Assembly: GCA_023645945.1 (NCBI GenBank)
Contig: JALAIB010000040.1
Coordinates: 1-42,862, forward strand
Length of the DNA: 42,862 bases
Reading direction: 5' to 3'
Source of the DNA: Diploschistes diacapsis
Taxonomy: Eukaryota
Positions 20,164-42,862 of this stretch are shown in pieces. The number at the start of each line of letters is the position of its first letter. The first letter of the stretch is position 1. The notes below the pieces were generated by a model. That model saw only the letters and a program-made list of their open reading frames with translations, was not told the origin of the DNA and did no database searches. A program made the position numbers and the translations under genes.

Positions 20164-23100
20164 TCAAGCAATGTCGAACAGCGGCTTCATCTTCTTGATC
20201 AACAACCACTCGTCGTTGCTGACATCTGACCGGTAGAATTCCTTGAGCGTATCGATACTCTGCCGCGATATCAACGAGTACAGCGTATCCTTCTCTTCGA
20301 GCTGTCTGCCGTATAGGGGCTGGTTCGGCCCTTCAATCTTCACGGCCACGGACGGTTGACCCTTCTTGCATACGGGAATTTGCTTGTGGTCTCGTTCTAT
20401 TGAAGTCCTGGCCAGACGTCAGCATACCAAAGTGGGACGATGAGAGATTTCCACCACTTACACTCTTCCAAGACTAACGACTTCCTTGACGTTGGTTACT
20501 GGGTTGTGCTTGACCGCGGCGATTGGAGTGGTCAGCTTGAGCTGCCCTTCGGTTACATCCACACCAACGACAATCGGATCCTTCTTGTTGAATACTGCCA
20601 CCGGTGTGAGAACGCAGGGGAATACGGCAAGTAGTTTCGCATCCTCCTTCCTCTGCTCGTTCAAATCCGCCATGTGCTTGGTAAAGTCATCGAACAGGTG
20701 ATAAATGATATCTGCTTTGAAAATCTTGACACCTACCTCGTCCGCATAAGCCTGTGCGTCCTTGTCCACTTTGACATCGAAGCAAAGCATGACAGCGTAC
20801 TCTTTTGATTTCTCAAGCATGATGCCCGCTTGCATCACGTCACGCTTGTAAACAGGACCAATGGAGATATTTGCAACGGGAATCTTTGAGACCCTAAGGA
20901 ATTCGAGAAGGGCTTCGAGCGAGCCCAACGTCGAAGCTTGGACGCTGACACCACGACCGGTCTTCGATACTTTGCCCAGCAAGTTCTCAAGATCTGACAT
21001 GACTTCCTCCTCGAGGTCTTCCTCATCATCGTCCGGACCGACGACTAGGAGACGTGAGCCGGCAATGGCATGCTCGAGATCGTTGGCGGCGATCTTGACG
21101 CCCAACGAAGCTTTGACTATGTCATTATGCACATACTGTGACTTGATTCGGAGTTCCTTCAGCGGCGCTGGTGTCAGCAATGCTCGTATATTTGTTGCTA
21201 TGGCCCCATTCAAACCACACAACACTACGCGGTCACCTTCTCGCAAGACTCCGTTCGAAAGGACGACGTCGATGGTCGTCCCGAGACCCTCGATGACCTT
21301 GACTTCCAGAACCGTACACTCAACCTCAGATAGGTACATGAGCTTGCTAGTCATCCTCTCTTGGGCCAGAGTCACGAGAAGCTTGAGAAGATCGCCGAGC
21401 CCTTCTCCGCTGTGAGCGGACGTTGGCACAAGTGAGACGTTCCTGGCCATAGATTTGTTCTCGTAATACCTGTTATATCAATTAGAGCCTCTTTTTCGTC
21501 CAAAAAAATAACAGGCGCGTCCAGACTGTTAGCACGCCCCACTTCCTTTTCGTGGTGAGAAAGGTAACAAACCAGGATTAAGGCGCTGATGGATGTGGGG
21601 AGAGCTAAAAGTTGAACATGGGCTGGAGAAACTGTAAAACTTACAATTCCGCATTGAACCCCTGCTCAGCAAAAGCAAGCTTGGTCTTTTCCAGACGGTC
21701 CCTGAACTCGTTCTGTACTCCCTTGTTCTGTAGCGAAAGCGATTCTTGGAAACCATTGTTGTCAACCCTCTTCCAGCCGTAGAGACGATCAATCTTGTTC
21801 AAGGCGACGATGAATGGTGTTTTCCTTTCCCGCAACAACCGCATCGACTCTAGTGTCTGTGGTTCCAATCCGTGCATGATATCCACCACCAAGATGGCAA
21901 TATTGCAGAGCGACGAACCGCGTGATCGAAGATTAGTGAACGACTCGTGTCCAGGGGTGTCGATGACCAGCAAACCAGGAACCTTGAATTCGAAAGCGCC
22001 GTCTTTGTTGACCACTGCGGTCTTCTGTTTCAGCGCTTCGACAGGGAAGAACGTAGCACCAATCTGTTGTGTGATACCACCCGCTTCGCCCTCTTGAACG
22101 TTCGTCTGTCTAATCTTATCTAGCAGCTTGGTCTTACCGGTATCGACGTGACCCAGGATACAGCAGATCGGCGATCGAAGGTTATCCTTCGACCGTGCAG
22201 CCAGGGCTTCTTCGTGCTGTTGTGCTCTTCTGGCCGCAGCATCGGCTTTCTTCTTTGCTGCTGCTTTCTGTACGGCAGTTGCGGCTTCTTCGTCTTCTGA
22301 GTCGTCTTCCTCGGACCCTGAGTCGGATTCTTCCTCTGTCTGAGCGATTGATTTCCTGCCGTTCACTGCAGCCTTCTCGGTTGCCTTTGTCTGTCCATTG
22401 GGTTGTCCTCTAGATCCGGCATTTGACTGAGCCTCTTCGTCGTCAGAGTCTACGTCCCAGCTGTCCTTCACATGCTGTTCCCCCCTATCCGCGGCAGCTT
22501 CCCAGTCTTCCTCGCCTGAGCTTTCTTCCGCTTCTGCTGCTTTGGCCGCCTCTTCGGCCCTCGCCTTCTCGGTCTCCATTCGTAGCTTTTCCCTTTCCTC
22601 GGCAAGACGTTGTGCTTCAGCCTCTGCAGCTTTCTGCGCCTCCGCAAGCATAGTTTCTTCATCGGGCCGCTGCTTGCCTCCCTTCTTCTTTTTCTCGTGC
22701 ACAGGCTTTGCCTTCTCTGCCGACTCGTCTAGTCCAGCGACTTTGGCACCCGCAGCGAGCATCTGTTGCCTTCGTAGTTGTGCTTTTTGCTGGGCCTCTT
22801 TTTGCGCTTTGGTCAGCAACAAGCCCTGTTTTTTCAGTTCCTCCTTCTTTTCCTTCTCCTTTTCCTTCTTCCTAGCCTTGGCTTCCGCAGCCCTCTTTAG
22901 CTTTTCCGCCTCGAGTTTCTCTTCTTCCTCTAAGCGTGCTCTCTCTTCCGCGGCTATTCGAGCCTCCTCCGCCTCCAACCGTTGTCGCTCCTCGATTTGC
23001 TTCTGCAACGCAGCCAAAGCGCCCTTTTTCGGTTTTTTGCCCGCATCCGCTTTAGCGGCAGCCGGCGCAGGTGCAGCTTCTGCTATGGGCTCCGGTTCAG

Positions 23101-23728
23101 CTTCCTCCACCTTCGGCTGCTCCGATTTCGCGGCGGGTGCGGCGGTCTTCTTCTTCGCTGCCTGGTTCGTCAAAGTTAGGTCACCGTGATGTATGCAGTA
23201 TGATGCTGTTGTAATACGCACCTGCTCCTTTTTGCGCTGCTTTTCCCTCTCCTTTTTTTCTTTCTCCTTCTCCTTCTTACTCTTCAGCCCCCCTCCTTCG
23301 GCTTTGTCTTCATCCTGCCCGTCCGCCGCCTCAGGGTCTTGCTTGGTTGGCTTGCCCTTGCCACCTTTACCTTTTACCGGCTCGGCGCTGAAAATGTCGT
23401 TCGCATCCGCCTCCTGTGCTGCCTTGCTCGCCGTGTCTTCTTTGACAGCATCATCTCCGTCAACGCCATTCGCAGATGGGACACTCTCTCCTTCGACAAA
23501 GTCTTCCTGGGCAATCTTGCCCTTCTTGGCTCTGCCCTTCCTGTTCCTCTGTACAGACGCCAGAAGTCCACCGCCTACGCCGTCCACCGATCCGTCTGGC
23601 TCGGCGTCCTTGACGGCCTCCTCACTGTTTGAGGCTTGAGCGGCAGCTGCTGCAGGGTCGATGGTTTCGGCGACTTCACTTTCCCAGTCGTCGTTCGCCT
23701 TCTTGTTTCCCTTCTTCTTGGGCGGCAT
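20164..23728 (-). CDS. FUN12: Eukaryotic translation initiation factor 5B (IF2-family GTPase)
   Basis: Exons 23728-23222, 23161-21645, 21469-20462 and 20407-20164. K/E-rich N-terminus, then [53 protein letters not shown] and [10 protein letters not shown]. Confidence 0.96.
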
Positions 23729-24436
23729 TTTTGATGGTGTCAGCCGTACGAGGTTATCCCCGGTCGGTGTAGTAAGTACGAAATGGCCAATAGCCAGTGC
23801 ATATAGGTTCGAAAACGAGAGAAGCACGCCAAGGTGCCAGGTGATACGTAAGCTACGGAGGTAGGGGCAAGAAAGAAAAGTGTCTTCTTAACAATATCGT
23901 GTTTTTATGATAGGGTCTGGAGAAAGTGAGGCTTGCCCGAGGTGTAGGAGTGGCGGGCCCCAGCGGGGCCATTGTTTTGCTGGGGATGAATAACCCTAAA
24001 CTCCGAAAAGGGACCGGCAAGGGTTCCAGGTACATGATATTAACTTCTATTCGGTCGCGTAAATACACGAACGTGCTTAAGCCAATATAAATCAATACAT
24101 TCACCTAACGGAGGGCACTGGTAAAACATTTTGAGTTCCAATAACGCCAGACAACCTGCTCCCCTGCTTTAAAGGCATCAAGCCTCCGCCTAACGCCTCG
24201 CTGGAAATGTCCAAAGAAATTAGTCGTCTATTCACAGTAATTTTATTGAAGCATAATGTTATACAAATTAATACAAAATAGAGATGCCTGGTTTCCGAGT
24301 CTATGTTGATAACCTCAATGATATCTCATCAAGCGCAGCGTTCAAGAATGCTAGGTCGTTACATCAGAAGGTCAGTAGAATACCAATGCATCTATTGGGT
24401 TGTCTGCGGGTGAAGGGGAATTTAACAATGAAATTT

Positions 24437-29748: not shown

Positions 29749-31518
29749 TTAGTTGTTCTGATCCGCGTGCCCTGTTGGTCCCTCTTCCGTATCTAACGGT
29801 AGAAAACATCAGTGGCAGAAAAATACCAAAAAGATTTTCAAGCCCATTGCGCAGGATGGAGAAGAATGACAAAATTAAAGGGCAGCGATCCAACTTACAG
29901 TCCGTGGTGACAAACGCCCTATCCACCTCCTGCAGGCCCTCGCAGCAGTACTGCAGCGTCTCCGCAACATCGTGCGCCTTGTTCAGCGGCGTCTTCTCGT
30001 CTAGCAGCAAATCAATCTCTGTCCATATCCCGTCGCCCGCATGGTACGCGTTGATGCTTTTGAAGCCGTCCACCACCGGGCTGAACCTGAAGGCCAGATA
30101 CGTGAGCTTCCGCTGGAGCTCGATGTCGACGGCCGAGCCGGAGAGTCGCGTCACGTTCTCGAAGCTGGTCCCGGCCCAGTCGCAGATGATGAAGAGGGAG
30201 AGCAGGCCGGCGCCGAGGGGGTCGAGCCACCAGATGCCAGCCTTTTGCCCAATGAAGGGGAATAAAAGGGAGAGGGTGTTGAAGATGACGTCTGTTTTGC
30301 AGTCCTGCGCTAGGGCCTGCACCTGCGTGGTTTTAATAGGGATGCATCCGAACCAGATTATGCCTTTGAGGATGATGGTGGCGAGCATGGCGCCGACGGC
30401 GATGGCGGGGAGGGAAGTCACTTCGTGGGAGCTGCTGGGGAGGAGTTTGGTGACAGATTCTTGCAGAATTTGGACGAAGGAAAGTATCATTATCTGCACG
30501 CGGTGGCTGTGAGCCGCGTATTTGAGGGAAAGATAATAGGCTGGGGGCTTACAATGGAAAACACAAGAATGCCGAGAGGCTCCAGACGGCGGCGGCCGAC
30601 CTGTTTTGTGTAAGCTAAGGAGCACTCTGTTGATCCACGGACGGGACTAACAGGGAATTTGCGCTGAAGGCTCTTCAAGCGCCATGATACAAGGCGGTTG
30701 GTCGTCCAAACTATGATGGTGCACAGTAGGTCGAGACCCGAATCGACAAGGGAGGCGATGAGCGAGAGCGAAGAAGAGTATATTGCTGCTATTGCCTTTG
30801 CAGCGAGAAGAAGAACATTGGCGATCACATTGATCTGTGATGCCATTAATCAGCTGCAACAAAAGGACTCACGGTAGGATCCTCGCACGTTTATCGCCCT
30901 CCTCGCTTTCCACTCTGCGTTCCGCCGTCGCTCAATTTCATCCTGTGGTAATAGCTTATCTATGTTCTCGCCGATCTCTTGTAAAGCGCCGCTCCTCTCT
31001 TGCTTGGTAGTCAGGCAAAGGTAGCCTCATACGATTGGATTGCCACATACCTATGACGCCATCATGATCTAACTGTTTAGTATACAACTCGTGAACACAT
31101 TCTTGATGTACCTACCGGCATCCGGGTTCATGCTATCGATAATATCGTCCGCCATGGCCATGACGAGCGCGTCAACCTCGACCCAGTCATTCAACCGCTG
31201 GTTCTGCAGCTCGTAATACTGGCGAATCTTCTTGTTCTTCATTTTCTTGATCTGCAGTATGTCAGAAATGACCCTTATTTACTAACAAGGTATTATATTA
31301 ACCTCTTCGGGGTCCTTCCTATACTCCGAACACCAGTCCCGGTCAATGCCCTCTTTTAGTTTCCTCTTGAGTTCATCCCTTCGCCTATCGCTCAGTGTAA
31401 TATGGGCTGCATCTCGAAATCTGGCGGCTGTAGGTCTCAATTTACCAGTCTCAATGTCCTCATGGGGCTGCTTGGTGTTTCCATTCGTGTTTGCTACGCG
31501 GTGCCTCTTTCCAACCAT
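29749..31518 (-). CDS. Cation diffusion facilitator (CDF) metal transporter, Mn-CDF/MTP-like
   Basis: Multi-exon, including an 18-nt microexon 31068-31051 and last exon 29792-29749 (YTEEGPTGHADQNN*). Motifs SSSLSLIASLVDSGLDLL, FPVGRRRLEPLG, ALAQDCKTDVIFN, WWLDPLGA and AHDVAETLQYCCEGLQEVDRAFV. D-x3-D sites in TM2 and TM5. Confidence 0.9.
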
Positions 31519-31770
31519 TTTTAGGGCAAATGGTGAATTGGCGGTTAGTTAGGATGGCAGAGCGTCTAGGTTTTAGTGTCTTTTCAGATCACTTAACAAG
31601 TGTAAAAGAGAAGGGACAGCTGGAATTTCACAGGTTTAGCAATCCAACATGATAGCTTGTTAGACTTGCACTGGCTAGTTTTCTGGGGAAGTCAACAAGG
31701 ATATGTTATGATTGACGTCACAACTATTTGGGGCTTGCGTCCCCGGGGATTTCTTTTTGAGATGATTGTG

Positions 31771-31780
31771 TATAATTATT
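31771..31780 (+). promoter_or_regulatory. TATA-like element upstream of the tRNA gene
   Basis: TATAATTATT ~28-37 nt upstream of the mature tRNA 5' end, the usual TFIIIB position. Confidence 0.4.
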
Positions 31781-31807
31781 ATTCGTTGGATCTAATTCAC
31801 ATACAGC

Positions 31808-31955
31808 GCATCGGTGGTCTAGTGGTCCGTATCTGTCGCCTCTTCCATAAACCTGAGTTTACTAACTTCGAATGTAGGTAGAATTGATCATTGCCAGTCC
31901 CAAAGTGGTATAACTCGAAATTGATCAGGCCCGGGTTCGATTCCCGGCCGATGCA
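31808..31955 (+). tRNA. tRNA-Gly(GCC) with two introns: a 53-nt spliceosomal-type D-loop insertion (31825-31877) and a canonical 24-nt intron at 37/38 (31897-31920)
   Basis: Exons 31808-31824, 31878-31896 and 31921-31955 give 71 nt: GCATCGGTGGTCTAGTGGTAGAATTGATCATTGCCATTGATCAGGCCCGGGTTCGATTCCCGGCCGATGCA. Acceptor GCATCGG/CCGATGC, anticodon stem GATCA/TGATC, anticodon GCC at 31893-31895, T arm CCGGG-TTCGATT-CCCGG. Confidence 0.92.
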
Positions 31956-31960
31956 TTAAC

Positions 31961-31965
31961 TTTTT
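31961..31965 (+). terminator. Pol III terminator (T5) of the tRNA-Gly gene
   Basis: TTTTT begins 5 nt after the discriminator base, with a further T-run at ~31980-31987. Confidence 0.7.
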
Positions 31966-32297
31966 ATCATTGTTTGTTATTTTTTTGCTACTTACTTACT
32001 GTATCTTCTTCCCACCGCATATCCATATATCATCATCATGCTTGTAGTTTCTTCAATTACCTAGAAAATTTCCTTAATTTCTGTCTAGACTACAATGATT
32101 ATCATAATGTACGCTGAAAGAGGTCACATCCTTTTTAGATATCGGAATCCGCGTTAGTATCAGCACGCCTTGGTGTTGGCAGGTAGACAGGCAGGTAAAC
32201 CTCGGATTTGAGAACGTCCTGATTACCAACAACACTAAAGCTAAAAAGCTTTGACGTAGCGAGCTGCGTATAACGGTGAGTACCTGGTAGAATAGAA

Positions 32298-32323
32298 ATA
32301 CATACATACATACATACATACAT
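32298..32323. repeat. (ATAC)n microsatellite
   Basis: Six perfect ATAC units. Confidence 0.9.
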
Positions 32324-32958
32324 GCCTCTCCAGGCAGCCACGAGACCAAGGCTCGATACTGTGGGCTACCGTGACTCACCAGCTTTGTTTCAGCTTTATG
32401 AGATATGATGACTCTTATACATTGGACGTCAGTTAGGCTGTTGACCGCATCAGTTTCTTGAGTTTCCATTCTGAATATATAACTCAAGACATCTTCTTCC
32501 GCTCTTCCGTTTCTTGAATCTATCCATTCTTTACTTCGTCGTAGCTTCTATAAGTGGGAGTTTGTTAGTTCTGCAGATGAAAGAAGAGCCATCCAGCCAT
32601 CCAGGCAGAGAAAGGCGTATTTCAGCTGGCGCAAAATACGACTTCGCGCTGTGGCGCCAAAAGATGTCACTCAGAATTCAGGTACGCCTGCCGCCCTTGC
32701 ACTTGTCAACTTGTCAGTGCCATGAAAGGTGCCGCATAGGTGCCTTGCCAGAAGATAGAGAGTAATTGCAAGCTACCATCACTGCTAGTTGGGCAAGTCT
32801 GCGTCCAAGCAAGACCTGTTGGCTGCCACATTGATTTGGAACACTTACCGAAGATGATGAAGCTGACTGCCGCATGCTAGACACGAGAATCCACCTTTTC
32901 CTATCTCCCGTAGGCCACTGTACATAAGCCTGTCCTACCTACCATTACGACTTCTCCA

Positions 32959-35900
32959 ATGGGCCTTCCCATCCCACGGACCTCGTTCACCCCCACTACC
33001 CTCATCTCGGACACATCGAGCCAGCAGACTTTCACCCCAGATTATACTCCCTCATCCACGTCGAGTCGGGAGCGCTGCGGCGCCGCTCAAGAGAGTTCAA
33101 GGGCAATGGACAGCATCAAGGTCGAGAACGGCGTTGCCGACAAGGAACAGCCTACAAATCCCGGGCAGGAGAAGGAAGTCAAAATCGAGAGCAAGGAGGA
33201 GCATAAGAGCCAGTCCAGCGGAGGCAAAAAGAAAAACAAGTGCACACGGCACCACAAACACAAGAGCTGTAAGAAAATAAAGAAGGCGAAGAAATGCAAG
33301 AAAGAAAAGGGGGATTCGGACAACGAGAGCAGCTCTTCCCCGTCATCCTCAAGCGACTCCAATAGTGGAGACAGCGGGGAAAGCTCTGTATCCTCGTCTT
33401 CCTCCTCTTCGTCAGATGATGACCGTGCTGCTCGACGCCGCCGAAAAGTCAAGAAGCAAAAGGAGCAGCAAAAGAAGAAGAGTAAGCGGCGCTGCCAGCC
33501 TGACCCTTCCAGTTCAGAAGACGAAGAGAACGAGACCGATACAAGCTCAGGGGAAGAGGAAATACGGCGCACTAAGAAGAGGGGCTCCAAAAGGACCAAT
33601 AAAAGGTCGTGCCGTAACGTCGAGGAGAGCGACAACTCCGAGGCTGCCATGGATGAGACAGACGAGGCGCAGAATACTACAGCACGGCTTAAAGCGCTAC
33701 AACTCCGGAATGCGAGGCTGCAGAAACAGATTGGCCGTGACGGTGGTGCGGGAGGCCTCCGCATGAAGACGAGGAAGACCAAGGGGAAGCACGGTAGGAA
33801 GGGAAGTAGCTTGTCAGGGAAGCCACAGTACTTCAGGGGCGACGAGTTGTGGGATCGAGAGATTCATGACTACCGTCTCACACCCACGTCGGAGCGAGTA
33901 GACGAGGAAGACTATGGAGAATATATCTTTCATGTGCGGAGGAGGTTCGATTGGGAAGGAAAGTATACGGATGTGAGTGCATCCAGTACGGAGGTTGAAG
34001 CAGGAGCTAATCCTGTATAGACTGTTCTCGACATTAAGAGCAAAACGCTGAGTGTTTGTCTGAAGGAGGTCATGGCTTCTTGCAAGTGAGTGCTAGCCCT
34101 TGCCTAAATTCCGCAGTTGCTAACCTTGACATAGGCTGGTCTCGCTGGCTGAGGACACACCTACGCTCGACCCGAACCAGCTGTTCTTGTATCTGGAGGA
34201 GATACAGTCCTACCGAAAGGAGTTGAAAGGAAAGCTCAAAAATAAGAAGATGAAGAAGAAAGCCAAGAAAAGTCTGAAAGATCAGATTGCCCATCTTAAA
34301 TGCTTACTCAAATATCTAAATAAGGACTTCGCTACGACCAAAAAAACCCTCCACTCCATGCTTGAAGCTGGCAACATCACCTTCGACCTACTGTGGACCC
34401 TTTTTCGGAGCGACACTATCTGCTATACATCGACATATACCGCCCACGACGAGCCTCGCGCGTTCAAAGTCGAATACGCCACTAAGGAAAGCAGCTTTGT
34501 CAAAGGTACCTGGATGAAGATCGAAGGCCGCTACATGGACTTCGACGGCAAGACTTTCGGCCTTGGCTCGTTGGACATCGAAGTCGCATCCTTCAAAGGA
34601 CCCCGCAAGATTAATTCCCTGCCGTGCTACCCATTGAAATACCACAAAAACCCCGAAGCACTCAAGGCTAGGCTTGTTGCTCGAGGCAGGAAGTTCACTG
34701 AGCTAGCTGGCATGCAGTACAAGTTCCACAAGGGCATCAGCTTTACCAAGCGCAAGCGCCAGGTCATCAAGGTCACCACCAATGGCAGGGTGATGATCGA
34801 TCCCGCTACTTTCCGTAGAGTGAACCCCAACTATCCCATCTCCACCGTCAAGCCCCCAGACCCAGAGATGACAGCCGCTCTGGTAGTTGGTGGCGAGGCC
34901 AGCGACTCTGAGGAGGGCGGCTGCTGCTGCGATGAGTCTGATGAGGATGATACTGGGCATGATCACACGTTTGGCGACGCCAACGCCGAGCCGCGCAAGG
35001 AGGATCGCCTCATTGTCGACAAGCAGGGCTTAGCGCACCACGTTACCGTCGAGCTTGACGAACATGGTATGGAAATCAAGAAGGAGAACATGGAGAAGAT
35101 GGCCGGAGGCTCCGAGAAGATGCGCGAGTTTACGGACGAAGAATTGCTCATCTCCTCGCCAGTCATTCTAGGCTTTGCCTTCTCTGAGAAGCTCTGGCTC
35201 GAGTTCACGGTCTCTGGGATCCACGATATCGAATGGAACGACGGCGCGTTCGAGTCCTTGGTGCTTCCAGAGAAGCAGAAGAGTATCGTAAAAGCCCTGG
35301 TCCAGAGCCACACCTCCGAAGCCGCAGAAAGGAAGAACATCGACGACGTCATACAGGGCAAGGGCCGGGGTCTTGTCGCTGTCTTGCACGGAACGCCAGG
35401 GGTGGGTAAGACGCTCACAGCGGAGTCCATCGCAGAGTTGCTGAAATGCCCGCTCTACTGCGTCAGTGCAGGGGAGCTGGGTACCAGTCCGAGAGAGCTA
35501 GAGCAGGAGCTGCAGAAGATCCTGGACCTGGCGCACTCGTGGGGCGCGGTGCTGCTGCTCGACGAGGCGGACGTGTTCCTCGAAGCGCGGACGGCGCAGG
35601 ATATACATAGGAACGCGCTGGTGTCGATCTTTTTGCGGCTGCTGGAGTATTTCCAGGGGATACTGTTCCTTACAACGAACCGCGTGGCGACGTTTGATGA
35701 CGCGTTTCAGAGTCGGATTCATATTGCTCTGAGGGTAAGCGCTCTTTTCCCTTCAATGGCGTACTTCTCGTAGTTCTTGTTCGTTTGAGATTTGGGAGGA
35801 AGCTGCTAACGTGCGCTACCAAAAGTACCAAGAGCTCGACTACAAAGCCCGCCGTGCCATCTTCACCATGTTCCTCAACCGCGTCGCCTCTCTGCGGCAT

Positions 35901-36344
35901 AGCCCCAACAACCCATCCGCCGCCACCAATACCACGACAACGACACCACCATCGGCGTCGCCCCTTGCCACTTCCTCTCCCTCGTCCTCCTCCACCGCCG
36001 AAACCACCTCCGCCACTCAGCCCCCCCTGACATCAATAACACCATCAGCACGAAAAACAGCATCGATGACAAAAACAACCTCTCCACCCTCCTCCACCAC
36101 AGCAGCAACAACGACCCAAGTCCCCAATTTCACCGACACCGACCTCGACCACCTTGCCCGCCACGCGAACCTCAACGGGCGGCAGATCAAGAACGCGGTG
36201 AGGTCGGCGCAGGCGCTCGCCGTGCACGCTGGTGAAGTGCTGGGCATAGCGCATCTGCTGCAGGTGCTGGACGTGGCGGAGAGCTTTGAGCGAGACCTCA
36301 AGGGGGGGTCTGGGTACAGTGATGCTATGAGGAGTTATATGTAG
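32959..36344 (+). CDS. Fungal AAA+ ATPase with a long K/S/E-rich low-complexity N-terminus
   Basis: Exons 32959 (or ATG 33106)-33972, 34021-34085, 34135-35734 and 35826-36344. Walker A LHGTPGVGKTLTAE, Walker B LLLDEADVFL, sensor LTTNR, FDDAFQSRIH, and lid LNGRQIKNAVRSAQALA. Confidence 0.9.
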
Positions 36345-39021
36345 AGGGAGGTAGTTTGTGGGAGGGGAGAAGAAGAGGAGAGGAGAGGAGAGGGGGTGAA
36401 AGGGAAAGGGAAAGGGAAAGAGAGCCGCGCTTGTCATGCGTGCGTGTCACTAAGGCATATTCTACGATTTATGCGGTCATTTACTCAAAGGGGGGGCTTT
36501 GTTTGGTGTTGTACATGCCTACCCTTACTTACCCTTAAGAAGCTTCAGGAAGGGGCACAATGTGTTCGTGGAAGTCTGTATGCATGGTGCGCTGGACGGT
36601 ACCAGCAGTGACTGCTTGGAGAAGTTTGAAAATATTTAGATACAGATTCATTTAGTTGAATTGAGTTCATTTAGATCCGGCTTGAAGTGAAACATGTCTA
36701 ATCAATAACGATGAGTGTTCTACAACGCTTATTATCGACTATTACGAAGCCATGATGGTTGTTGATATTTGAATATTTGCGTAGGTTGGTTGGTTGGTAG
36801 GTACAGGTAGTAGTAGTAGTAAGGGTATGTCTTATTCTGCCTACTGTAAAATTGTGTAACATATTTAGTGGCGCCTTAGTGTGTATTCTACCTAGTTTAC
36901 TGGTGCTTTATGAAATACTTAGATATCCATATAATTTGCATATACATATATATTACTTATAAAAATACGTAAAATTATATAAAATTAAAAATAAAATAAA
37001 TAAAATTTAATGATTATTATGGCCATAAAGATTATAACGTAATAAGAAATAGATATTAAAGCACTAAAAGATGTTTAAAATGTTTTAAAAATAACTTAAA
37101 AACATATTCTTAAATCTTTTATAATTTTTCTTATACCGTGTTCTTCTTCCGTCCATTATATTCGCCTTTTCCGCCCATTATGCTCCCTTCCGCCGTTTAT
37201 TATACTCCTTTCCGCTCCTTTTCCATCTCCGCGTCCGGTCGTAGTGATCAATGGCCATAAAATTTACCCGTAGCGCGTAAGAAATTGCTTATAAGGGTAT
37301 TTAATACTTCTAAACGTCCGATTAAACGTCTAGAAATTGTTCACATAAGGTTAAAACGCGTTAAAATCGGTCACGGTCATCCGAAGGATGTCCGCGACGG
37401 CAAAGAAACGCGTCCTCCACGCCGGGAAATCCGCAGAGAAACTATAAAACCTCCCCGTAACAGGTAGCGGCGGCAAGGGTATCCGGGCCCGCGCAGGCTC
37501 GGCGAGAGCGGCGAGGGCAGGCGAGCCAGGGGCGGCGAGGCAGCAGGCGTCGGGGCGGGCGAGGGGGCAACACCACGACCCAGAGCGGCGGAAAGGGCGT
37601 CGTAGAGCATGAAATCTTCAAGACCTAACTCATCGTTGTCGGCGGCAACGTGGCCGCGGCGGAGGCAGGGAGGGCTACAGAACGCGCAGGGCGAGCAAAC
37701 AACGAGACCTCTATCGGATTTAAAAAAAATTTAGAATATTAAGATCAAAAATAATAAAAAATAAATAAATATAACTAAAAAGAGCGTTAATTTTATAAAT
37801 ACTTATAACTACATACAAATTAGTATAACTAAAAAAGTATCTTAAGAACCATAATATTTATCATATAATTTATATGTATAGTAAATAGAATAAGACTTGC
37901 CTAAAGAACTGGGATCAATATAGGACGCGCAAATCTTTCTAAAGGAACGCGGATACGGAACATTCAATCCACACAAAAAGAGGCTTACAAGTATGGCTTC
38001 AAGTATCAAGAGACTTTAGTGAACTATGAAACAGCCATAAAGTTTTATAATAAAATAGATAGCTAGATACGCAAATTCACGGCGTGTAACTGCTGACACT
38101 AGATTCAAAAATCTTGGGATCAAGATACACAAAGTGAGGCAAGGTATCCAATTCTACTCATTAAATGGGCCTTATATCGATTTTATGAATCTCTTCACTT
38201 ATACAGATGGCATTCTATATTTAAAGAGGTCCAGGGACGCACCTTAAGACGAAAATAAAAATGAAGAAACGAATAGAAATAATAAGAAGACGATAGGGCG
38301 GACGAAAATGAGAGGACTACATACCTATTTTATCTTAGTTACAGCGGGCAGCCCCTTTTCCACAACGGCAAATCTGTTATAAAAGGCTTCGCCTATTGTC
38401 GGTATTTCAGGTGCAGTGATAAGATACTTCATATTACGCATATTTCGAGCAAAGCGCTATCATGATATTAAATATACACATATTATTCATCGATTCTTAA
38501 TAAGACTTTTTATAAAACCGGAATGTTTTATTAAATTCATTCCGGAACCTGAAACAAAATTAACTAATCGATCAAATACAAAACGCTGATGAAAAAATAT
38601 AATTTGGTTACTAAAATCTGTCCTGATAAAATATTGAATTCAAATATATATATATATATATCTCAGACAGCTGTGATAGCCCATAATAGAAATATATAGC
38701 CCATAAAATAACAAATAATGATTACTTAAGAAGTGCAAGGCTACAGGCCACCCCTTTGCCCTTTGCTCCCCTGTAAAGAGGTAGGGGGATAATAATAATA
38801 AATCCTCAGACATTATTAAAGGCCGAAACCATAACGGAGATCTTAATACTATCAAACAAACCCTAGCCTTTCTTCAACGATACCCATCAGAAATCTAATC
38901 GGAGATTCTGATAAATACCGTTAACCCATCTTAAATAAACGTAAGAAAAAATTATAAACAAGTAGTAAACCGGGACACGCTAAGTCTGTTTAAATAAACT
39001 TTAATGGTATTATTTCTGCCG

Positions 39022-39822
39022 ATGGATCGCTCCGCTGCCAATAACATAGATAAGACGAGAAATCATTCTAACAACTTTTATTCTATTACGATCTAAATAG
39101 GCGTCTCAACCAATCGACAATTCAGCGATAAGGTCGCTGCTTGCGTCAAGAAAGGGCGTAAACTGGAAGATCTCTTCCTAAACCCAGAGATTATTTCTAA
39201 GACCATCCTCCATACGCCGCTAACCATTACATAATTTATATCTCATTACAAGACCTTCTGTGGAACACTACCAGCTAAAGCACGGCAAATCATCCAAGAT
39301 CTTGGTCGGCAGGTCAACCAGAATCTTAGTCGGCAGCATGCTCAAAGTAAGCGAGGGAAGAGCTATTTATTAAAGATACAACAAGTTAAAGCAACCGACG
39401 TTGGTATTTCAAAGGACTTTACACCGTTTTTTAAATCATGAACGGAGCCGGAAGCTTTCTTTAACCCATATAAAAAACTAAATGCAGATTCAATAATGTC
39501 TTAAATCTACGAGGAATTACGACATATCAGTAAACGCAATATTATTAATTCTATCCGTTAACGAATCTACGCCGTAATTTTTTGCGACTTACGCTGTCTA
39601 ATAAATAAAAATTTTCGATCCTTACTAAGACCCGGAATCAAGAAATCAATCGCACAGATCATTTTCGACTCGTTAATTATCAATAACTCTCTCGAAGAGA
39701 TTATGAGATAGATTGAATTGTATGTGAAGTTTAATCAGAAAATGAAGACCATCGCAGATCACAACGGAAAACTTAGGGCGTTAATAATAATACTATCATA
39801 ACTCTTATCGCTTCGCCAATAA
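39022..39822 (+). pseudogene. RIP-mutated relic ORF of unknown family
   Basis: One frame runs from ATG 39022 for ~265 codons without frameshift. It is interrupted only by isolated stops (39094, 39232, 39439, 39502, 39559, 39709, 39799) explicable as C>T/G>A changes of CAA/CAG/CGA/TGG. Reads as protein-like helical sequence (QFSDKVAACVKKGRKLEDLFLNPEII...). Confidence 0.6.
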
Positions 39823-40578
39823 GTTCTTCATACCTAAGAACGGTTCGCTCGCTTACAGTTTCAAGATAAACGAAAAAACTCAATACCGCCGACTTTAACA
39901 AAACGCTACAACATTTCGATAACATTAAGATTGCTCAAAAAGCGATTGAGACAGATTCCTATAATATCGCAAACCGGATTCATAACGTTATTATATAAAA
40001 GTTCATTTCCAGTATTTACGAAGGTCCTGCTTCTACGCCACAACACGTCCGGTCAGCAATTTAAGAAGGCGTAATATCGGACAAGAACTCAATAAATAAT
40101 AAAGATATGCTCGATAAAGATAAGTCGTCGGTCGACAGCCATCTAAATAATAATAATATCATATCGTTACGCACAAGTCTAGATATTTTAAATTAAAAGT
40201 ATTTATATTAAATCGGCGGGGGATCTAGGGATCCAATAATCTTTAACGAGTCACATAAGTCTTATCGTTCTATATCAGCCTTATCAAACTCTTCGGCTCG
40301 AGACGGCCTAAAGTTTGTATTAATACAGATTTAAATACAAGATTGATAGCCGTCTCGAAATAATGAGATCTTACTTAATATTAAATTTCAAGAATATAGC
40401 TCGATAATTATGACTTAGGTTTTTCTAACTATACTTACGGAAACCGCAATCGAAAAACTTGGAATTAAGTAATCGCAGGATTAAGGAATTCGTAAATAAC
40501 GTATCAACGAAGCTTTTAAAAGTTAAATTAAGAAAAAAAAGTGAATCAAGATAGATCGAGCCAGAACACATTATATCA

Positions 40579-40935
40579 GAAGTTTTAAACCTTACAGTCA
40601 TTCTATAATCTATATATCCAACAGTCTGAAAATCTTTAAACGCCGTAATTATTACGAAATCCGTATATCGTGCAGCATAAAAGCTTTTAAGTACCATAAC
40701 GATTTCAGAATCCGTACATCGTGTAGAATAAGAGCTTTGAAGTACAACAATTATTCCAGAATACGGATCTCTTACAACCAGAAAGCTTTCAGGTTTTACA
40801 ACGATTCTAGAACCCTTATATCCCGTAACCCGAAAGCTTTTAAGCATAATAGTCATTTTAGAAATCGTACGTTCCGCAGTCTGAAACCTTATAAATATCA
40901 TAATTATTATAAAACGCGTTTATCGCTCGATATAA
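40579..40935 (+). repeat. Degenerate tandem repeat, 7 x 51 bp (17 codons)
   Basis: Units start at 40579, 40630, 40681, 40732, 40783, 40834 and 40885, with recurring AAGCTTTTAAG...ATT...GAA. No indels between units. Confidence 0.8.
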
Positions 40936-42862
40936 TTAAACTTAAGCATTATAAAAACATAAAAATGTACATCGTTCGCAGGGAGGACACTATGGTGCAC
41001 CGTTGAACCCCTATTATAAGCCAGTTATTATATATAATACAGATCGAACTGTGGTAAATCCCTATAGATGAACCTTTTATAAGATTAATAGATATGTTAT
41101 ACCTCCTTCTTGTCTATCAAAGGTCTGCGAATCATCCTTAGACAAATTCAGGTCCTAATCTTGCTCGAAGATTATAGATTGACGAAGATCCTGCCGAAGA
41201 AGACCGTTAAATTAAATTAAACGATTGAACGTAATGATTATTATAATAATATCAGGGTAGAACCGTTCGATATATCCTGGTTTTATAATCGTTGTGAGGT
41301 AACAGACTAACTTCGCAACGAGAATTTTCGTAGGATTAATTAACGTTACTACTATACCATGTTTTTATGTAACTTATTGTCGATTTGATAGCGACTACTA
41401 TAATTAACGATATCCTTCCCGCCCGTAATAAATCACATACGTTAAACCATTAGTTTTTAACGTCGTTTATATTAGTCATAGCTTCTTCCGAAACCCGTAA
41501 ATACTTAAAAAGAATATCTTAAAACTCTTATACTGAACCAGCCTCCTATTCTAGCTATTCAAGAATTCTTTTAGCGCATACCTTCGTTATAGCTTAAACG
41601 GACATAGGTTCATAAAAAGCTCGCAGACGTCAGATTAACGCAGAATTAAATAATCGGTTTATTATGCGCGCTCCGAATATAGAAAGTTTAGCCGGCTAAT
41701 AAGCTTTTTAACACCACGACTATATATTCTTAAAAACGATCATACAACGTAAATTTTAAGCGTTGCGAGCTATCGGAACAGTAGCTGAAATCGATATTAA
41801 TAACATTTGATCTACGGGGCCGAAAGTAGAAACGACATTTTTTAAAGCACAAAAATACGGTCATGTGATTTAACAATCTTATCAAATTTTTTCAGCCATC
41901 CCAGTTTCCAGGATTCTAACACCTCTCGAACAGAACTCAAATTCTATCGATAAGACTCGTGAAATAGATTCCAATAAATAAAAAAGATGAATTAAGGAAG
42001 TTTACTATTGCTACCTCGTAAACATATATAATGACGAATACAATCGAGTCGGTCTAAGATTTATTATTAACGAGTACATACATATTCAAGAGCAATCCTC
42101 TTCTTTACTTTATCCTACAAAATTCAGCGAGACCTATTACTTGTTCTAAATCTTCTATCGACTTAACTAAACTTTATTAAATCAGACGTTAACTTCCTTT
42201 CCCATAAAGAAACGAATCCTCCTAACACGATTATAAATAACGAACTCCCTTAAAAACGCTTATCATTTATTTCTTACAAACCCGAGATCTCGGCTTATAT
42301 TTCCTGTTATTTACCATAAATTCAAACACCTATTTAATAATACCGCCTATTCGGCCTATATAAATTAGCTTTATTGAGTCACGTAAACCCTCCTACTGAG
42401 CTTCGGACATTAGAATGACCGCATAAACTATATCTTTATTAAATATAAAAATATTTTTTCTATAGAACGTGAACATTTTAAACCCTTTACTCTTTAAAAG
42501 AAATCGCGTGCCATTGATTTTTAAGGAATTATTCACCATTTTATCCTCTATTACGAACCCGCGGATAAAACCTTAAAAACGCCTTCGGACGCTTCTAATT
42601 TTCCAAGGATCTCGCTTCGTCCGGAACTAGCCCTTCAGCTGCATGGAGCAGGAGAATAGCAAGCTTAGAAAGATAGCGGCGAGAAGGAGGATAGAAGCAG
42701 CGAATCTACGGTTTATTCTATACAAAATCTTTCGCATGCGAAAGACTTTATATAGGGATAACAAGTCAATTAAAAATAACGTTTCCGTTCGCCATTCTTT
42801 TCCCGCTTTTGATTTATAATTCAATAACACTATTCATTACATCCGAAAGATTAAATATAAGC

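Follow-up and report, generated by a model that had tools for sequence, protein, structure and literature searches.

A gene for glycine transfer RNA (tRNA), tRNA-Gly(GCC), in the lichen-forming fungus Diploschistes diacapsis very probably carries a genuine spliceosomal-type intron, placed precisely inside its D-loop and within an otherwise intact tRNA gene. The gene occupies positions 31808-31955 on the plus strand of contig JALAIB010000040.1 (GenBank assembly GCA_023645945.1); the whole stretch of DNA that was analyzed, 42,862 nucleotides (nt) in length, is referred to here as the window. Two intervening sequences interrupt the gene: one of 53 nt in the D-loop, which is the main subject of this study, and one of 24 nt at the 37/38 site.

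In the textbook view, spliceosomal introns and tRNA introns are unrelated types with separate hosts, and the known exceptions are the small nuclear RNA (snRNA) and ribosomal RNA (rRNA) genes of fungi. This division was restated in 2025, in passages that place spliceosomal introns in transcripts of RNA polymerase II (Pol II) and assign the cutting of tRNA introns to the tRNA splicing endonuclease, TSEN (PMC12530127). Ectopic spliceosomal introns in fungal RNA genes that are not transcribed by Pol II are already known, and it is tRNA as a class of host that is unreported in the literature searched. That literature, which left most subscription journals outside its scope, yielded no description of a tRNA gene with a spliceosomal intron; likewise, none was named in an earlier reading of the same DNA from its letters and reading frames, hereafter the sequence-only reading.

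A tRNA Gene with Two Intervening Sequences

The layout of the gene matches, letter for letter, the split arrangement that the sequence-only reading had proposed, in which 17 nt of tRNA are followed by a 53-nt insert and then by the remainder. Exon 1 (31808-31824, 17 nt) contains the 5′ strand of the acceptor stem, U8, G9, the 5′ strand of the D stem, and A14, G15, U16, and G18. The insert in the D-loop, a spliceosomal-type intron by its signals, extends over 31825-31877. The 78 nt that follow it (31878-31955) constitute the remainder of the tRNA, including the 24-nt intron: exon 2 (31878-31896) supplies G19, U20, A21, the 3′ strand of the D stem, the 5′ strand of the anticodon stem, and the loop UUGCCA, with the anticodon GCC at 31893-31895, and exon 3 (31921-31955) supplies U38, the 3′ strand of the anticodon stem, the variable loop, the T arm, the 3′ strand of the acceptor stem, and the discriminator A73. 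Between exons 2 and 3, after position 37, lies the canonical tRNA intron of 24 nt. Its existence had been claimed before and stands, and its coordinates are now set at 31897-31920 or, equivalently, 31896-31919. All of these elements are on the plus strand. By its 37/38 position, the 24-nt intron fits the canonical eukaryotic tRNA intron, whereas the 53-nt insert at 18/19 does not.

Once both introns are deleted in silico, ARAGORN recovers a tRNA-Gly(GCC) cloverleaf of 71 nt in which, as the earlier reading had described, the acceptor, anticodon, and T stems are perfect; the features of the cloverleaf are recognizable only with both intervening sequences removed. The positions U8, A14, G18, G19, A21, U33, G53, T54, T55, C56, A58, C61, and A73 are all kept. 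With perfect stems and a complete set of conserved positions, the claim that the exons are free of decay also holds, and zero decay was found across the 71 exon positions and all of the splice signals of the locus. The insert itself neither adds nor removes a single nucleotide of the tRNA.

Position 17 is missing from this tRNA, which makes G18 its 17th nucleotide and places the GT-AG cut between G18 and G19. Moreover, because G/G/T recurs at both junctions of the insert, four cut positions yield an identical product. The sequence-only reading was right that excision restores the G18-G19 pair of the D-loop; what had to be corrected was the position, since the cut lies between these two nucleotides and is one of four equivalent cuts.

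The prediction that standard tRNA finders would miss or miscall such a gene was borne out at the native locus, where both ARAGORN and the Rfam tRNA model (at its gathering score) report 0 genes and a permissive Rfam scan detects the T arm only. When introns were allowed, ARAGORN called a 'Trp(CCA), 58-nt intron' gene instead. This model was rejected as forced, with a D stem that is nearly unpaired and a 21-nt variable region without structure. If its intron is spliced, the locus would expose a blind spot in the annotation of tRNA genes, given that neither ARAGORN nor the Rfam tRNA model recovers it.

Splice Signals of the D-Loop Insert

The insert displays every signal that had been attributed to it. 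It starts with GTCCGT (31825-31830), which fits the fungal GTNNGT pattern, contains a perfect TACTAAC branch site (31860-31866) whose branch nucleotide, A31865, lies 12 nt before the end of the insert, and terminates in TAG (31875-31877). This TAG provides the first AG past the branch, with none between 31867 and 31875. The insert has a G+C content of 0.43, does not contain a run of four T residues (T4), and is nearly structureless, with a folding energy of just -2.1 kcal/mol. The fold of the whole precursor was no stabler than that of shuffled sequences (z = -0.84) and is uninformative.

To determine the frequency of such signals, the two strands of the window were searched with a sliding frame of 53 nt, at 85,618 positions in all and with the locus itself left in the count. 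Frames of the type GT..AG numbered 302 and those of the type GTNNGT..YAG six, and TACTAAC was present 8-30 nt from the end in 69 frames. The combination GTNNGT..CTRAY..YAG occurred in a single frame (1/85,618), which is the tRNA locus itself. In the entire window, TACTAAC has three occurrences. Chance is not a serious explanation for this agreement, because the splice signals fall on boundaries that are set by the tRNA and were not chosen to fit. Read on the minus strand, the TACTAAC of the insert becomes GTTAGTA, a possible 5′ splice site; this reading was rejected, as it is the GT and AG of the plus strand that coincide with the boundaries of the tRNA.

For comparison, ten candidate messenger RNA (mRNA) introns were hand-picked among the 62 candidates that continuity of open reading frames (ORFs) gave in the window. 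Among these ten, backing from Pfam is available only for the intron of a cation-efflux gene, across which the ORF pieces match contiguous parts of the profile (3-77, then 77-197). The candidates measure 45-91 nt, have a G+C content of 0.38-0.58, start with GTRNGY, and carry a CTRAY-like branch site 9-22 nt from the 3′ end. The insert matches them in length, G+C content, and distance of the branch site, and the earlier claim that it is as long as the local mRNA introns agrees with the range of the ten. From its letters, we conclude that the insert is, in all likelihood, a real spliceosomal intron or a derivative of one. Elsewhere in the 42.9-kb window no second copy of it was found; what the insert shares with its surroundings are words of at most 10 nt, attributable to chance, which argues against a local donor or a repeat family.

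Gene Copies in Lichen Metagenomes

Logan contigs from three sequencing runs (X1, X2, and X3), all lichen metagenomes of the same study, were aligned to positions 30500-33500 of the window at 80% likeness. Only one sequencing run, labeled as a lichen metagenome, contains the stretch with the tRNA gene. X1 is probably the window's own sample and so does not count as independent support. In this run, a contig of 31,941 nt with a depth of 94.4 (record 1) spans positions 30500-31949 with 0 differences and includes both junctions of the insert. The insert and its two junctions are real in the reads.

A different contig from the same run (record 3; 909 nt, depth 41.2) aligns to 31877-31949 with eight differences. 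Five of them could be located, and all five (31913, 31915, 31916, 31917, and 31919) are within the canonical intron. The loose end of this contig before 31877 ends in GCATCGGTGGTCTAGT, and the flank ahead of GCATCGGTGGTCTAGT is unlike that of the window. Judging by the aligned letters, record 3 is a second copy of tRNA-Gly(GCC) that lacks the D-loop insert, shares the visible part of the first exon, and has a 24-nt intron that is related but has diverged; its source may be the same genome or a different fungus in the thallus. The 24-nt introns of the interrupted and uninterrupted copies differ at at least five positions and the visible part of exon 1 is identical, which suggests that the exons were held constant while neutral sites diverged. 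Because the two copies differ in this intron, a spliced intermediate could be assigned to the interrupted locus.

The copies share a 37-nt unitig that contains the 3′ exon (31920-31956), and its depth of 169.3 in X1 equals the sum of 94.4, 41.2, and about 34. The residual depth of about 34 suggests a third copy of the gene. Although depth is not copy number and serves here as a rough indicator only, it points to few copies that share this 3′ exon, of which the interrupted locus represents about half or more. Neighboring long contigs have depths of 83-94. The depths of 41.2 and about 34 could come from a single second locus with two alleles, each at half depth, in a mixed thallus; a second, related fungus could also be their source.

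No contig of X2 aligned to 30500-33500. In X3, the only match was a 36-nt piece (record 7) that covers the T arm of a different tRNA-Gly(GCC) gene, which has another short intron after TTGCCA. Since the X3 lichen also has an intron there, with different letters, an intron in the anticodon loop of tRNA-Gly(GCC) seems to be usual in these fungi. The gene for this tRNA is not known to contain introns in most eukaryotes.

The metagenomes were also scanned with a pattern composed of the end of exon 1, a gap of 40-70, the start of exon 2, a gap of 20-50, and the T arm, which yielded 18 loci. These loci bear on the D stem of the interrupted gene, which is weak in the ARAGORN model (G.U, U-A, C*A, U.G). 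An identical D arm of 16 nt is present in two of the 18, L003 and L008, the latter being an ordinary uninterrupted tRNA-Gly(GCC) gene. Because the same arm sits in both, the weakness of the stem is not read as decay.

Putative Transcription Unit and Proposed Maturation

The locus retains the elements of a complete unit for RNA polymerase III (Pol III), all on the plus strand. Since the mature tRNA has GT after G18 and the insert opens with these same two letters, the A box (TGGTCTAGTGGT, 31815-31826) reads through without a break at the DNA level. The B box (GGTTCGATTCC, 31934-31944) is intact. A run of five T residues (T5; 31961-31965), 6 nt past the end of the tRNA, is the likely Pol III terminator, and a run of seven (T7; 31980-31986) is found 15 nt beyond it. 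On the upstream side, the TATA-like hexamer TATAAT (31771-31776, at -37 to -32 from the start of the tRNA) may represent an upstream Pol III promoter element. The longest T run within the tRNA gene is of three residues, without any internal T4. From the start of the A box to the start of the B box the distance is 119 nt, compared with 66 nt without the insert and 42 nt without both introns.

Since the A box remains whole despite the insert, which is free of T4 runs, Pol III would be expected to transcribe the gene across both introns. The spliceosome would then excise the 53-nt intron, forming a lariat at A31865 and using the first downstream AG as acceptor. The D arm and the mature domain could form only after this removal, and TSEN and tRNA ligase would then take out the 24-nt intron at 37/38. 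The whole of this chain, that is, a spliceosomal-type intron in a nuclear, Pol III-transcribed tRNA-Gly(GCC) gene together with its productive splicing, is a reading that we hold tentatively and would place just short of an even chance. A functional intron is favored by several points: the A box is intact, internal T runs are lacking, the locus has full depth, copies are few, and there are precedents in lichens and in U6. Overall, what the sequence-only reading described is confirmed, and how it interpreted this is supported in part.

With regard to its origin, the most likely path would be that an excised mRNA intron was reverse-spliced into the tRNA or its precursor, followed by reverse transcription and recombination; for introns of U6 and of ribosomal DNA, the same path has been put forward. 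Reverse splicing is indicated because a whole intron was inserted precisely, without flanking exon sequence. The insert is flanked by a direct repeat of 3 nt, GGT, which constitutes weak evidence for an insertion at the DNA level with target duplication instead.

Alternative Explanations

Several observations weigh against productive splicing, and most of them also support the hypothesis that the locus is a recently inactivated copy. According to this hypothesis, the intron or its complementary DNA (cDNA) landed in one of at least two tRNA-Gly(GCC) genes, splicing is unproductive or the transcript falls to nuclear surveillance, the uninterrupted copy supplies the tRNA, and the interrupted gene is a young pseudogene. 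An uninterrupted copy is indeed present in the same run, at a depth of 41.2, and the interrupted locus, which is dispensable in principle, may not be the source of the mature tRNA. The sequence-only reading had named as damaging to itself a situation in which an uninterrupted copy supplies the tRNA; half of this has been found, namely a copy with the same first exon in the same sample. Furthermore, the 5′ splice site is weak with respect to local introns, as it has a C at +3, where a purine is present in ten out of ten candidate mRNA introns. None of the 18 metagenome loci was interrupted, and all of them are ordinary tRNA genes with a chance upstream word. The D stem, weak as it is, also has its strands parted by the insert, and the spacing between the A and B boxes is stretched to 119 nt, which far exceeds the usual value. 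In addition, Pol III transcripts are reportedly not substrates for splicing in mammalian cells. Finally, intact exons and intact signals are equally expected of a very recent insertion into a gene that is now dead.

The hypothesis of a dead copy nevertheless has to accommodate the complete lack of decay, in the 71 exon positions as in the splice signals, along with a preserved A box and the absence of an internal T4 run. The relative depths also speak against it, with the interrupted locus at the full contig depth of 94.4 and the intact copy at 41.2. Moreover, the product of a reverse-splicing event should be, by construction, a substrate for the forward reaction. We regard inactivation as a real possibility, although one that stops somewhat short of probable.

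It is improbable that the insert is instead the intron of some plus-strand Pol II product that overlaps the tRNA, be it a long non-coding RNA or an extended untranslated region, and from which the tRNA is cut out by RNase P/Z or is never made. The genomic setting would allow for such a transcript, since the locus is in a 1.4-kb divergent intergenic region with plus-strand genes from ~32.9 kb onward, and spliceosomal introns do not normally occur outside Pol II transcripts, at least in the account given in passages of a recent article (PMC12530127). However, the boundaries of the intron match the structure of the tRNA to the nucleotide, its orientation is that of the tRNA, the tRNA gene has all parts of a Pol III unit (A and B boxes, with the T5 run directly downstream), and no plus-strand ORF that matches Pfam overlaps the locus.

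Very unlikely is a non-canonical tRNA intron that is cut by the tRNA endonuclease, of the type found in Cyanidioschyzon merolae and archaea, or a small, degenerate group I intron. Both have precedents: passages of one source describe tRNA introns in the D-loop of C. merolae (PMC3978253), and passages of another report that lichen fungi splice degenerate group I introns with the help of host factors (PMC8527467). With respect to the endonuclease, the sequence-only reading had seen no bulge-helix-bulge (BHB) motif, in which a 4-bp helix lies between two bulges of 3 nt at the exon-intron junctions, and this is now corroborated: at all four equivalent cuts, the central helix has only 0-2 of 4 pairs, and none of the cuts also has good outer and inner helices, whereas the canonical 24-nt intron, used as a control, shows 3/4 pairs in the central helix and 4/4 in the outer helix. 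As for group I introns, these require the 5′ exon to end in U and the intron to end in G, along with a P1-P9 core. None of the four equivalent boundaries has both U as the last base of the exon and G as the last base of the intron, and the near absence of structure in the insert (-2.1 kcal/mol) also argues against this class. Least credible of all is the idea that the splice-like signals are accidental and that the insert arose by chance or through an error of assembly. The single locus without a second example would lend itself to this explanation, but against it stand the full set of signals at fixed boundaries, with a frequency of no more than 1 in 85,618 to which only the locus itself contributes, and the presence of both junctions, with 0 differences, in a 31.9-kb Logan contig at a depth of 94.4.

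Implications

If the intron is spliced, the exception to the separation of intron types would widen to include the Pol III transcripts of the most abundant class, and the spliceosome would be able to act on an uncapped RNA of ~150 nt with a first exon of only 17 nt. In a more far-reaching form, which we advance tentatively and with rather less than even confidence, the locus would encode the first tRNA whose single Pol III transcript has to pass through two unrelated splicing machineries in turn, the spliceosome for the D-loop intron and then TSEN with the ligase for that of the anticodon loop. The interrupted gene would represent about half or more of the gene dosage for tRNA-Gly(GCC), and lichen fungi would have extended to tRNA their habit of hosting introns in rRNA genes. 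By analogy with the idea of 'molecular frugality' that has been put forward for introns of ribosomal DNA (rDNA), the D-loop intron may act as another brake on the capacity for translation.

If, on the other hand, the copy is dead, it would still be a rare and clean record of the transposition of a whole spliceosomal intron into a non-coding RNA gene without flanking exon sequence. It is exactly such an insertion that is predicted by the reverse-splicing models of intron gain.

Genomic Setting

The tRNA gene is located in a divergent intergenic region of 1.4 kb. On one side, a cation-efflux gene on the minus strand starts near 31518; a TACTAAC at 31280-31286 on the plus strand corresponds to GTTAGTA on the minus strand and is the likely 5′ splice site of an intron in this gene (GTTAGT...TCTGAC...CAG). 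On the other side, no ORF that matches Pfam overlaps the tRNA locus on the plus strand. There, past the locus, a Lys/Ser-rich ORF begins at ~32.9 kb and is followed by an AAA ATPase gene. The former (32914-34017) encodes 368 amino acids rich in Lys, Ser, and Glu and has no match in Pfam. The latter (34130-36341, plus strand) contains a DUF7025 and an AAA ATPase domain, as well as a weak match to the fungal AAA+ lid that remains below the cutoff (23.2 bits, compared with a cutoff of 27 bits).

Toward the end of the window (38001-42862), the G+C content falls from ~0.50 to 0.34-0.35, and this region may be a repeat degraded by repeat-induced point mutation. Its sole long ORF (40428-40919, minus strand) has no match in Pfam. 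Elsewhere in the window, the best matches named for the eIF5B gene (20461-23887, minus strand) are all from lichen-forming Lecanoromycetes (among them Thelotrema, Calogaya, Xanthoria, Lobaria, and Teloschistes), in keeping with a lichen mycobiont as host. Among full-coverage database matches the identity is 67-77%, with no close sequenced relative in that collection.

Relation to Known Systems

Introner-like elements of fungi, which are reported to have been described by van der Burgt et al. in 2012, resemble the insert in that a complete intron unit of small size has come to occupy a new site, in this case with a 3-nt direct repeat (GGT) on either side; introns derived from transposons are the subject of a review (PMC11282704). 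Unlike introner-like elements, which are marked by numerous near-identical genomic copies and a stable fold, the insert has no second copy within the 42.9-kb window and no stable structure.

A second group for comparison is that of the non-canonical tRNA introns of C. merolae, nucleomorphs, and archaea, which, in the sections of the source that deal with them, are defined by the BHB motif and cut by the tRNA endonuclease (PMC3978253). The likeness, within what those sections cover, is in the position in the D-loop, besides or instead of an intron at 37/38. The difference from the introns of C. merolae and archaea is that the BHB is absent at the insert, which has GT, branch, and AG signals instead.

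A closer parallel is found in the snRNA genes. Introns of the spliceosomal type are hosted by the fungal genes for U6 (a Pol III transcript), U1, U2, U5, and rRNA, and no tRNA is named in the passages of the article that enumerate these hosts (PMC5855946). U6 introns have been found in Schizosaccharomyces pombe and other fungi (Tani and Ohshima, 1989, 1991; Canzler et al., 2016; cited in passages of PMC5855946), and reverse splicing with reverse transcription has been proposed there as their origin (PMC5855946). Like U6 introns, the insert is short, has canonical 5′, branch, and 3′ sites, and is inside a gene that has internal promoter elements for Pol III and encodes a non-coding RNA that is small and structured. 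Unlike them, it is in a host that also carries an intron of the TSEN type, and its splicing is predicted here from sequence. Furthermore, the argument of 'proximity to the catalytic centre' that applies to U6 is inapplicable in this case, because tRNA is not part of the spliceosome.

The most relevant precedent with regard to the host is that of the lichens. Ectopic spliceosomal introns are reportedly present in the nuclear rDNA of lichen-forming and other ascomycetes, a finding that is said to go back to Bhattacharya et al. in 2000. Their presence in lichen rDNA is also set out in passages of a later study, in which a 57-bp rDNA intron of Cladonia grayi was excised by the spliceosome from transcripts of RNA polymerase I (Pol I) after its transfer into the rDNA of yeast (Armaleo and Chiou, 2021; PMC8527467). 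As far as those passages describe them, these introns and the D-loop insert have in common a lichen fungus as host, a size class (57 bp there, 53 nt here), and a gene that is not transcribed by Pol II. What differs, on the same account, is the substrate: the rRNA precursor made by Pol I is many kb long, whereas the tRNA gene would give a Pol III transcript of ~150 nt with a first exon of 17 nt. Those passages name no example in a tRNA. That the tRNA gene is in a lichen fungus matters in this context, because lichen fungi are a group with known spliceosomal introns in rDNA.

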